A DNA stretch of 64,000 nucleotides from Oculina patagonica (Eukaryota). The notes beneath the pieces are model-generated. The model saw only the letters and a list, made by a program, of their open reading frames with translations, was not told where the DNA came from and did not search any database. How positions within the stretch are numbered: position 1 is the first letter of the stretch; each line of letters begins with the position of its first letter. Position numbers and translations under genes: made by a program. This document shows, piece after piece, positions 7,151 through 28,001 of this stretch. The DNA lies in NCBI RefSeq assembly GCF_052425735.1, contig NC_135761.1, forward strand, positions 63,922,001 through 63,986,000, given 5' to 3'.

Positions 7151-7156
7151 GATATT
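7151..7156 (+). repeat. Left target-site duplication GATATT of the Maverick
   Basis: Identical GATATT at 27996-28001; single copy in paralogous empty sites (6626-6631, 43980-43985). Confidence 0.95.
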
Positions 7157-7228
7157 AGTAGTATAGGTAGGCGCTTTCACAGTGCTCCAATCAGATTGCA
7201 GGATTATGGCAGTGAACCAATCACAGGT

Positions 7229-7720
7229 CCGGATATAGACCACGTGATCCCTTAGGGACCCACGTGACCAACCCCTCCTACGTCATCACTTAATGAATTC
7301 AAGATGGCGGCTTTACTTTTAATTTATTCAACATGGTGAGCCCGGATATGGGTCACGTGGTACCTTAGGGACCCACGTGACCAAACCCTCCTACGTCATC
7401 ACTTAATGTATTCAAGATGGCGGCTTTACTTTTAATTTATTCAACATGGTGAGCCCGGATATCGACCACGTGGTTCCTTAGGGACCCACGTGACCAAACC
7501 CTCCTACGTCATCACTTAATGTATTCAAGATGGCGGCTTTACTTTTAATTTATTCAACATGGTGAGCGCGGATATGGGTCACGTGGTACCTTAGGGACCC
7601 ACGTGACCAAACCCTCCTACGTCATCACTTAATGTATTCAAGATGGCGGCTTTAATTTTAATTTATTCAACATGGTGAGCCTGGATATCGACCACGTGGT
7701 CCCATTGGGACCTACGTCAT
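7229..7720 (+). repeat. 113-bp tandem repeat (about 4.3 units) in left TIR
   Basis: ggatat recurs at 7231, 7344, 7457, 7570 and 7683. Units carry CACGTG x2, ACGTCA and CAAGATGGCGGC. Confidence 0.95.
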
Positions 7721-7729
7721 CAAAGCCCT

Positions 7730-7897
7730 CCGATATTCGATACTCGATACTCGACATTCGATACTCGATACTCGATACTCGATATTCGATACTCGATACT
7801 CGATTTTCGATATTCGATATTCGATATTCGATATTCGATACTCGATACACGATATTCGATATTCGATATTCGATTTTCGATATTCGATATTCGCGAT
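7730..7897 (+). repeat. 7-bp microsatellite (TCGATAY)n in left TIR
   Basis: About 24 units of tcgatat/tcgatac/tcgattt. Confidence 0.95.
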
Positions 7898-25700: not shown

Positions 25701-26665
25701 AGTATGTCAACACCTTCCTTCAGATGAAGCAGGAAGCGAGCGGTTGGCCCTCTTGGACCGGACAAGATCCTGAAAAAAGAGCCCAATATGTCACGGCCTT
25801 TTACGAGAAAGAGGGCATACAATTAAATGTTGACAACATCGAAAAGAACCCTGGCAAGCGCTCCTTGGCCAAGATGATGCTCAACTCCTTCTGGGGCAAG
25901 TACGGCCAGCAATGTAACAAGCCTCAAGTAGAGGCCTTTACTTCGCCCGCCGACTTCTACTCTCTCTTGAGAGATGAAAGCGTCATCATCAGCGACCTTA
26001 GGGTCGTCAACGATGAAATGTTGGAGATCGTTCATAGGAAGAGAGAGGGATCCGAAAACGTCCAGCCCAACGTCAACATCTTTGTGGCGTGTTTTACTAC
26101 ATGCTATGCACGCTTGAAGCTGTATCAAGACGGACTCTCTCGACTAAAGCCGGAACAGATCCTGTATTTCGATACAGACTCCCTCATTTATAAGCGAGGT
26201 CCCACAGATCCAACACTTCCTCTAAGCGACTTCCTTGGCGACTTCACTAACGAACTAAACGATGACGACTTTATTACTGAGTTCGCCTCTGCAGGGCCGA
26301 AAAATTACGGCTACAAAACAGCCCAAGGCAAAGTCTGCTGCAAGGTGAGAGGGTTCAGTTTAAATGCTAGAGGATCCTCCCAGTTAAACTTTGACATATT
26401 AAAGGATAATGTCATCTCGGAGGTGAGAGAGCCATTAGACGTGCCCCGCGACATCCCCGTCTTCAACCCGCATAAAATAACCCGAGATAAGAAGAAGAAG
26501 ACCCTCAACACAATCACCGAGATAAAACGGTACAAAGTCGTTTTTGACAAACGCATAGTGGATCGCAACTCATTTTATTCTTATCCATACAGATACATGA
26601 AGAGCAGACCTGACATAGAGGAAGAGGAACGAATAGACCTGGCAGAACTTTTAAATGGACAATAA
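22748..26665 (+). CDS. polB: Protein-primed family B DNA polymerase (TP region, OTU-like, Zn-finger, 3'-5' exo, Vsr-like insert, pol)
   Basis: Exo motifs WDAE, HNFQGYD, YCKSDV; pol motifs YVDFTSLYP, KMMLNSFWGKYGQ, YFDTDS, GPKNY, KVRG; uninterrupted ORF. Confidence 0.97.
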   Translation: MFDFELTPHVDRRVRKFGLHMRNYTARIIQRGGGDLSVPIGQRPVLAQEMSAALQRAIQRHILTDDNVRDNDHLLINVNSDRLRNAYHSVRLTVRDWRNNTAPAQQVLQQLSDMLNSNEHFTMDDAFNMNISHVRDPGTGGTSRAIKLGLDPIQKILKDKKCVVQIKNTDNLCCARALVTAQAYRDFGSDHPRYKGLKNGQREQTEAAQELHRRAGVPEGPCGLDEITLFQSHLREYQLVIVSVEHGYQIIYKGPEKPEAKRLVLIKHNQHYHTCNSLKGFFGRSYYCLRCETGYDSTSRHNCPGTKCFACHQTDCTDYRRGGTAELPCVDCRRNFFGERCHRLHKTRQSGSGKPSEYGKRNSVCHTHKKCLDCRKIYSGYEIKNGHRCGFSECPSCKKYHDLRTHKCYIQNPEKIAEERRNRKRRRDGTSSTPTERDPPIFVSWDAEAMQEDGEHVPNLICAMTSNTDGEYKFEGESCVVEFLTWLRRLAEENDIIALAHNFQGYDAYFILNELYAQAICPDQVVNGAKILSMSIPGITFKDSMCFMQMSLATFPKAFGLTEQKKGFFPHLFNTLSNQNYVGPIPARDYYDPEGMTKERKEEFEVWYQERVDEEYQFDFQQELLSYCKSDVRLLHDGCRIFREEFKEMAGFDPMDQCITIASACSRYYNTQCLKEHTLASEPVRGWHGRGNSHSRVSLEWLHYLDSQSSTRIQHARNGGECELFLRGHSVCVDGKDSDDTVYEFYGCFFHGCPDCFPNRDRKYSLLSTRSMREVYEETRCRAAVIRAAGYTLVEIWECQWNKLKKEDTAVKEFVDSLDLVTRLEPREAFFGGRTNAVKLYDKTEEEEQIHYVDFTSLYPWVNKTCVYPQGHPTVILEPGHTDVSQYFGLAKCTVSPPYGLYSPVLPYRQGGKLIFPLCRSCLETEQSKPLTERSATCHHTRQERSLTGTWCTPELEEAVRQGYVVDHIHEVWHFPQRSDQLFKKYVNTFLQMKQEASGWPSWTGQDPEKRAQYVTAFYEKEGIQLNVDNIEKNPGKRSLAKMMLNSFWGKYGQQCNKPQVEAFTSPADFYSLLRDESVIISDLRVVNDEMLEIVHRKREGSENVQPNVNIFVACFTTCYARLKLYQDGLSRLKPEQILYFDTDSLIYKRGPTDPTLPLSDFLGDFTNELNDDDFITEFASAGPKNYGYKTAQGKVCCKVRGFSLNARGSSQLNFDILKDNVISEVREPLDVPRDIPVFNPHKITRDKKKKTLNTITEIKRYKVVFDKRIVDRNSFYSYPYRYMKSRPDIEEEERIDLAELLNGQ

Positions 26666-27136
26666 GAATGTTGAACTTTTATTGGAACTTTGATTTGTTT
26701 GGATTTGACACACTTACTTTTCAAATTGGCCTCCTCATGTTGTTGAAAGGAGTGATTGTTTTAACAAGGTCAATTTCTTGTTTTCCTATGTTGCCAAAAG
26801 GAAGTCACCTTCGCGTAGAAATGCAATCGGTGGTACATAAACCGGATTAAGTTAATAGTGCTTTGAGAATTTTTTTGAAAATTTTTGAGAATGTCAAAAA
26901 ATGAAGAACATCCTCCTCGTTGTATTTACCGCGCCGTGAAGTTTTTGTGATGTCCATCATTTATTTCAGCACATTAAAGAAGAGGTTAAACGTGTACATG
27001 GTGTCCAATTTTCTTTTTTAGAAGTGCACACGATTTTCGTGGTTCGTAGTGTCACGCCGTGTCACGCAATCTGATGGGTCAGTCTTTCGTTCCCAGTAAT
27101 ACCGAGGAAAAGGGCGATTCACCCCCATCCCCCTCT

Positions 27137-27995
27137 CTTTACAAGCGTGTTTTTTCTCAGTATCGCCGACCCAAATTCTTTGAAAAAGCATGGCAATTTG
27201 TGAGCAATATATAATGGATGGTGGTCTTGCTAACTCACTATGAAGTGTGAGTGTATCGCGAATATCGAATATCGAAAATCGAATATCGAGTATCGAATAT
27301 CGAAAATCGAATATCGAGTATCGAATATCGAAAATCGAATATCGAGTATCGAGTATCGAGTATCGAATATCGAGTATCGAGTATCGAGTATCGAATGTCG
27401 AGTATCGAGTATCGAATATCGGAGGGCTTTGATGACGTAGGTCCCAATGGGACCACGTGGTCGATATCCAGGCTCACCATGTTGAATAAATTAAAATTAA
27501 AGCCGCCATCTTGAATACATTAAGTGATGACGTAGGAGGGTTTGGTCACGTGGGTCCCTAAGGTACCACGTGACCCATATCCGGGCTCACCATGTTGAAT
27601 AAATTAAAAGTAAAGCCGCCATCTTGAATACATTAAGTGATGACGTAGGAGGGTTTGGTCACGTGGGTCCCTAAGGAACCACGTGGTCGATATCCGGGCT
27701 CACCATGTTGAATAAATTAAAAGTAAAGCCGCCATCTTGAATACATTAAGTGATGACGTAGGAGGGTTTGGTCACGTGGGTCCCTAAGGTACCACGTGAC
27801 CCATATCCGGGCTCACCATGTTGAATAAATTAAAAGTAAAGCCGCCATCTTGAATTCATTAAGTGATGACGTAGGAGGGGTTGGTCACGTGGGTCCCTAA
27901 GGGATCACGTGGTCTATATCCGGACCTGTGATTGGTTCACTGCCATAATCCTGCAATCTGATTGGAGCACTGTGAAAGCGCCTACCTATACTACT
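27137..27995 (-). repeat. Right terminal inverted repeat (859 bp) with heptamer array (27255-27422) and 113-bp units (27432-27923)
   Basis: Reverse complement of 7157-8015. Confidence 0.95.
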
Positions 27996-28001
27996 GATAT
28001 T
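27996..28001 (+). repeat. Right target-site duplication GATATT
   Basis: Matches 7151-7156. Confidence 0.95.

Follow-up and report, generated by a model that had tools for sequence, protein, structure and literature searches.

The closest described systems to the element treated here, a 20,839-bp insertion at positions 7157-27995 of a 64,000-nucleotide window (the whole stretch of DNA analysed) on contig C4 of the 529-Mb genome of the stony coral Oculina patagonica, are the Alpha adintoviruses and the Polintons/Mavericks. Like the coral element, they carry a pfam03175-type PolB, an rve integrase with a chromodomain, a hexon-type major capsid protein (MCP) and phospholipase A2 (PLA2), as well as adenain and ATPase, of which the coral element has presumed counterparts (PMC8502044; 10.1101/2024.03.25.586562). 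The Polinton PolB includes a terminal-protein domain (PMC11071308). Adenovirus replication has its origins at the genome ends, and a panhandle is formed by the displaced strand (PMC9863843). Stony-coral polintoviruses share with the present family the coral hosts, a length of about 22 kb, terminal inverted repeats (TIRs) and the expression of hallmark genes (PMC11131425). Intact vertebrate Mavericks share 6-bp target-site duplications (TSDs), TIRs, a two-module layout and purifying selection on virion genes (PMC8097293). The exchange of modules has also been described. Exchanges between Alpha and Beta adintoviruses are already in print (PMC8502044). In Caenorhabditis, the divergent pPolB1 and pPolB2 are swapped in otherwise similar elements of one species, C. 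briggsae, with conserved TIRs (10.1101/2023.08.22.554363). In Polisuviricotina, replication and morphogenesis modules reassort, and one reported contig combines distinct replicases with morphogenic genes that are identical (10.64898/2026.10.13.758929).

The coral element is an Alpha-type adintovirus/Maverick. Taken alone, the window locus is an ordinary young, already broken adintovirus. The stronger finding is its family, which is an unusually clear record of polymerase-and-end swapping. A clear rule is observed among the copies: the ends follow PolB, and the integrase follows the capsid.

A shared arm, seven polymerase types and their ends

The preliminary description of the locus, made from sequence alone, had advised a genome search for sister copies. 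The MCP search returned 95 matches, 27 of them full-length at 99-100% amino acid identity. The sequence record nearest to the MCP is labelled Oculina patagonica. Together with one frameshifted match, these make up the family set of 28 loci, which includes a sister copy on contig C1; four more distant elements were added. Five loci with an MCP below 98% (C7_26.64, C1263, C1176, C8_8.03 and C4_51.90) were excluded from the arm analyses. Over the arm (8182-16945), 27 of the 28 copies lie within 0.1-2.0% nucleotide divergence, and C1187 is 3-4% away. This last locus (335378-367635) has two nested tip pairs, and its more diverged arm is partly mosaic. The integrase is conserved at 96-100% amino acid identity in 27/27 copies, and all seven core genes are uninterrupted in 13 of the 27 other copies.

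PolB is carried by 22 of the 28 copies and falls, in a quick tree, into seven types with 44-100% amino acid identity to the window PolB. These are type A (two copies), B (86%), C (78%), D (11 copies, 66-68%), E, F (two copies) and G (four copies, one of them broken, 44-48%). The remaining six copies are without a full PolB. For types D to G, the stretch shared with the window begins at about 7981-8034 in most copies and extends to 21537-21811; for types B and C, it ends at 17244.

Every tip begins with AGTAGT, and the sequence that follows is type-specific. The correlation between ends and PolB was calculated for copies with both a far (virion-side) end and a PolB of at least 1000 amino acids. 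Over its first 200 nucleotides, the far end varies with PolB distance (rho 0.83, 0/5000 permutations, 16 copies), whereas arm distance is weakly related to PolB distance (rho 0.35, 265/5000 permutations, 16 copies). Median cross-type identity is 54% for the far end, 66% for PolB and 98.7% for the arm. A reciprocal case was found on contig C8, where a type-C PolB (99%) and type-C tips are joined to an MCP of 51% identity.

Recombination, selection and derivative copies

Linkage in the arm was analysed in 25 copies with 177 informative sites, leaving out C1187 and one member of each sister pair. The r2 value drops from 0.61 (<10 bp) to 0.05-0.07 (>200 bp; 0/1000 permutations), and linkage decays within about 200-500 bp. 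CpG homoplasy was ruled out as the cause, as the same decay was obtained without CpG sites. The arm variants are under purifying selection. In seven arm genes, shared variants amount to 41 nonsynonymous and 99 synonymous changes (41N:99S) and singletons to 102N:127S, for a neutral expectation of 0.71:0.25. Since the shared variants are synonymous-biased and linkage decays, the variation was both filtered by selection and shuffled. The sister pairs of types A and F have each kept one arm haplotype, with arms 0.1% apart, whereas other copies differ by about 1%. Selection and shuffling therefore probably took place mostly before insertion.

Short-range linkage decay and homology-bounded junctions would also be expected if ectopic gene conversion among integrated germline copies had homogenised and scrambled the arms, and 28 near-identical templates are present in the genome. 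Recombination outside the chromosome would then be unnecessary. This scenario is nonetheless unlikely, as the sister pairs have retained their haplotypes and as the shared variants are under purifying selection whereas post-split differences look neutral. The sister of the window element (L003), which has its own TSD, differs from it by 28 substitutions in an interior of about 19.1 kb (0.15%). These comprise 14 nonsynonymous, 6 synonymous, 2 stop and 6 non-coding changes, close to the neutral expectation of 0.71:0.25:0.05. Moreover, conversion would not readily exchange 13.8 kb between elements whose PolB differs by 34-56%.

The 28 copies of a near-identical 13.8-kb arm are also hard to assemble, and the mosaic could in principle be an artefact of assembly or polishing. 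Such an origin is highly improbable. The tips match within elements, perfect 6-bp TSDs flank 23 of the 25 copies with both ends found, and the variants are synonymous-biased. In addition, a separate run (X17, RNA by guess) has a loose end at 21809, where the arm continues into a type-D-like leader.

Several copies have the form of derivatives. In five PolB-less copies (18.5-20.5 kb), the whole arm is retained and the sequence breaks off at one common position, about 490 bp inside a type-D PolB. Their outer tips are D-like, and their ends carry long duplications at 98-100%; four of the five contain nested remnants of a type-A end, and four of the five have perfect TSDs at different sites. The shared breakpoint at different insertion sites points to a single deletion product that was amplified. 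In one type-D copy, PolB is still present and only one of the two ends is extended, as expected of the precursor. A 3.4-kb element on C5 (L107:316-3685) is a perfect fold-back with Maverick tips, a TSD and a 3' fragment of PolB on both arms. On C9 (L108:315-3486), a mini element of 3.2 kb combines Maverick tips and a 6-bp TSD with a fragment of the ATPase.

The window element is probably a young germline insertion sampled from a recombining virus population, in which the replicon consists of PolB with its cognate ends and the capsid and integrase cassette was swapped before insertion. The heritable unit would be PolB, with its fused terminal-protein domain, and the matching inverted ends, each PolB presumably working best on its own ends. 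The unit exchanged between replicons would be a 13.8-kb cassette that comprises the virion genes, the integrase and the accessory genes, and particles would presumably be formed. The crossovers may occur between co-replicating genomes, on one side close to the inner edge of the TIR and on the other shortly before the PolB leader. Through end pairing during strand-displacement replication, one end would be copied onto the other, so that the far end stays matched to PolB. End copying might also yield the PolB-less and fold-back derivatives, which would be amplified in trans. One integrase could serve all types because every tip starts with AGTAGT. For PolB-bearing copies, a double crossover would be expected to give the same maps; the junk present in duplicate at the ends of the PolB-less copies speaks for end copying. 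A common inner TIR box was considered as an obligatory left crossover site, but this was not established, the box being at the PolB-side end in three of seven loci tested.

Several results weigh against this explanation. Mean arm distance is 1.11% within and 1.39% between PolB types (16/5000, 20 rows), so the arm is not fully independent of the PolB type. In the Mantel test, 10 of the 16 rows belong to type D, and the seven types, besides being few, are related to one another; the p-values therefore exaggerate independence. In two D copies, the ends match poorly over the first 200 nucleotides (61% and 72%). The stop in the presumed penton gene of the window copy and some variants could be consensus errors. 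Finally, no relative was found in a search of IMG/VR.

This last result would also suit an intracellular self-synthesising transposon family, whose modules recombine without particles and whose capsid genes are recent passengers. The loss of the penton gene in both type-A copies and the non-autonomous spread of PolB-less copies go in the same direction. The shared variants of the MCP (3N:22S) and of the presumed penton (5N:14S) do not, and the latter gene is open in 26 of the 27 other copies. In addition, at least half the words of the type-A PolB stretch occur in 11 of the 24 runs listed, which include coral metagenomes and three organism labels. The transposon account is thus a possible but less probable one. 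It bears on how the elements spread and does not conflict with the mosaic pattern.

If the family was sampled from a virus population, that population may still exist in corals, and we lean slightly towards this view. Replicon and virion-integrase cassette would be inherited separately in it. At least seven replicon types would share one recently swept particle cassette. They would reassort more quickly than a divergence of 1-2% builds up, and would sustain satellites that are capsid-complete but PolB-less.

Anatomy, age and transcription of the window element

The features of the element and its insertion site are as follows.

7151-7156, left TSD, GATATT, 6 bp, perfect
7157-8015, + strand, left TIR, 859 bp, with AGTAGT tip and CCAAT boxes, PolB-type-specific
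7229-7731, 113-bp unit repeated 4.4 times in the left TIR (one array in each TIR)
7731-7893, heptamer array in the left TIR (one array in each TIR)
8182-8547, - strand, parvovirus-type PLA2 (Pfam PF08398, E 6e-12)
8519-11585, - strand, eight small open reading frames (ORFs) of 199, 120, 111, 72, 73, 164, 133 and 79 amino acids, several very basic
11572-12237, - strand, presumed packaging ATPase, with Walker A/B-like motifs at residues 19 and 89 (Pfam weak, E 0.019)
12370-12939, - strand, presumed adenain-type cysteine protease, with H/D/Q/C motifs (PF00770, E 0.009, under cut-off)
12942-14345, - strand, MCP, 467 amino acids, predicted double jelly-roll fold
14342-14832, - strand, two small basic ORFs of 78 and 85 amino acids, possible core proteins
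14829-15860, - strand, presumed minor capsid (penton) gene, 343 codons, between MCP and integrase, broken by a stop
15857-16945, - strand, rve integrase (PF00665, E 1e-12) with C-terminal chromodomain (PF00385, at gathering cut-off)
16968-18318, - strand, three accessory ORFs of 91, 256 and 91 amino acids, with diverged replacements in PolB types B and C
18517-19425, + strand, GRF zinc-ribbon protein (PF06839, E 3.5e-7)
19491-20012, + strand, 173-amino-acid protein of an unnamed eukaryote/Preplasmiviricota cluster (unnamed clusters at 0.97)
20087-21007, non-coding array, 218-bp unit repeated 4.3 times
21537-21811, main right-hand swap zone, where identity to most other copies stops just before the PolB leader
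21819-21971, + strand, PolB leader exon 1, 51 codons, acidic, with a basic end that may act as a nuclear localisation signal
22044-22112, + strand, PolB leader exon 2, 23 codons
22748-26665, + strand, PolB main exon, protein-primed, 1305 amino acids, uninterrupted, type A by tree (PF03175, E 1e-42; exonuclease and polymerase motifs)
27137-27995, - strand, right TIR, 859 bp, with AGTAGT tip
27996-28001, right TSD, GATATT, 6 bp, perfect
43980-43985, + strand, empty paralogous site with the hexamer once, in a host repeat (43622-44310) paralogous to both element flanks

The boundaries given in the preliminary description were upheld. GATATT stands on both sides, and its single occurrence in the paralogous host repeat indicates that the target duplication is real. 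That description also counted one mismatch, at 7568, in the outer part of the 859-bp TIRs. It is indeed the only one in the outer 648 bp; the next is at 7805, and nine of the 12 in total fall within the heptamer microsatellite. By analogy, the AGTAGT tip may be a sign of jump-back protein priming, as first suggested. GC content is 47% in the element and 39% in the flanks.

The 22 genes occupy 80% of the interior, in line with the 22 or so tightly packed ORFs first noted, and the frames of PolB, integrase, MCP, protease and ATPase were likewise confirmed as uninterrupted. An rve integrase, TIRs, a TSD within the 5-8 bp range, a protein-primed PolB and a double jelly-roll MCP are found, as in Polintons/Mavericks. 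The PLA2 gene in the virion module, a marker of Alpha virion modules (PMC8502044), and the C-terminal chromodomain of the integrase place the element with the Alpha adintoviruses. The MCP fold is predicted by a model built with 60 homologues (predicted local distance difference test, pLDDT, 87), while a single-sequence model only reached pLDDT 31. Its top Foldseek matches are iridovirus, PBCV-1 and virophage MCPs (E about 1e-15). The ATPase and the protease are presumably what their Walker-like and H/D/Q/C motifs suggest. The eight small ORFs are 90-100% conserved in most copies, and the 164-amino-acid one has a weak SLATT match (PF18181, E 3e-4, under cut-off). The 173-amino-acid protein matches a Maelstrom/DEDD nuclease fold at 0.88, a weak lead only. 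The 256-amino-acid accessory protein had no family match in Pfam, PHROGs or a further search. The PHROGs search of the element's proteins gave nothing better than E>0.03, and PDB sequence searches with PolB and an MCP profile gave no match.

The element had been described as near-intact, with a complete virion gene set. This does not hold for the window copy. An in-frame stop at codon 172 (15345-15347) splits the presumed penton gene into ORFs 14829-15341 and 15345-15860. We take this gene to be a penton from its position and motifs; neither half had a match in Pfam or PHROGs. The stop is found in none of the 27 other copies with the same arm, and a split penton as a conserved family trait or a case of readthrough was ruled out, the stop being private to the window copy. 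The sister copy has a different stop, at codon 252. Both type-A copies have thus lost the gene by different stops, whether by chance or host selection. The window copy is probably penton-null and now decaying and, its structural genes not all being uninterrupted, is not to be counted as virion-competent.

The view that the provirus is young was borne out by its perfect TSD, its TIRs and the 28 substitutions relative to the sister. Eight of the 12 TIR mismatches are common to the sister and so predate insertion; four are private to the window copy. Each copy has diverged by no more than about 0.07%. At a coral substitution rate near 4e-9 per site per year, the insertion would be roughly 200,000 years old or younger.

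The PolB gene starts at 21819, upstream of the long ORF, and both leader exons are in phase with 22748. In PolB types A to E, the ATG lies 3-10 nucleotides past the shared arm, and the leaders mostly encode an acidic peptide followed by a basic motif at the GT donor. Both PolB introns are excised in public run X10 (RNA by guess, different organism label), which has a 22110-22746 joint bordered by GT..AG; its loose ends at 21973 and 22042 are consistent with the first intron. The X10 transcript differs from the window at 11 of 1524 letters and is not attributable to the window copy. Contigs of run X14 extend into the unexcised introns. This run, which has a different organism label, also contains a contig of type-A PolB from which 2,015 bp are deleted (23583-25599). 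In small-RNA run X22, a single run, 1 of 6.9 million reads fell within 21050-27130. In three type-D copies and one type-G copy, the segment 21781-22652 resembles that of type A, which indicates that leader and introns are swapped apart from the PolB body. The Cys and His motifs of PolB at 171-174 and 270-273, with no profile or structure match for an OTU-like domain, may presumably mark such a domain at the N-terminus. The suggestion that the family may still be active is supported indirectly, by the 13 copies with intact core genes, the bias of the shared variants and the spliced PolB transcript.

A local host-repeat duplication (1907-3803/44079-46017 and 6836-7156/43622-43985) is the source of the empty insertion site. 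The host flank also contains a tandem repeat with raised GC (29674-31885; 583-bp unit, about 3.8 copies, 99% identical) and arrays of 15-bp and 89-bp units at 37123-37581 and 40695-41228. Elsewhere in the genome, a second, larger group of distant Mavericks is represented by matches to the MCP at 23-33% and to the PolB core at 41-44%. It accounts for more than 70 matches to PolB, a lower bound, most of them in long open frames.

Comparison with known systems

So far, the questions of how animal Mavericks swap polymerases and of whether they circulate as viruses to this day have been argued from deep phylogenies. Here, one genome provides 28 dated insertions, mapped swap zones and intermediates (a one-sided extended end, PolB-less copies and a fold-back). 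PolB-based and MCP-based family names would split this population differently. If the virus population described above still exists, the host genome would be an archive for virus population genetics and for a rule of matching between origin and polymerase.

The adintovirus exchanges in print concern distant lineages (PMC8502044), whereas one arm of about 99% nucleotide identity is found here on seven PolB types in one genome. Caenorhabditis Polintons have two PolB classes and highly conserved TIRs (10.1101/2023.08.22.554363), whereas the coral family has seven types and its ends change with PolB. In the Polisuviricotina study, sequences were dereplicated at 95% identity, which can hide the arm/PolB pattern, and pPolB was linked with a DDE integrase at class level (10.64898/2026.10.13.758929). 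In the coral family, by contrast, the integrase travels with the capsid arm and the ends travel with PolB. Vertebrate Mavericks were described as intronless (PMC8097293), unlike the coral PolB with its two excised introns. In the main text on stony-coral polintoviruses, within-genome reassortment of PolB and arm was not found, and the words "Oculina" and "intron" do not occur (PMC11131425). A literature search, limited largely to papers outside subscription journals and not including Repbase, returned no account of this family, of end-PolB coupling or of a PolB leader that is spliced. Polintons in corals, the swapping of PolB and the mosaicism of modules are known already; what is new, as far as the literature was searched, is their population-scale form with coupling between the ends and PolB.

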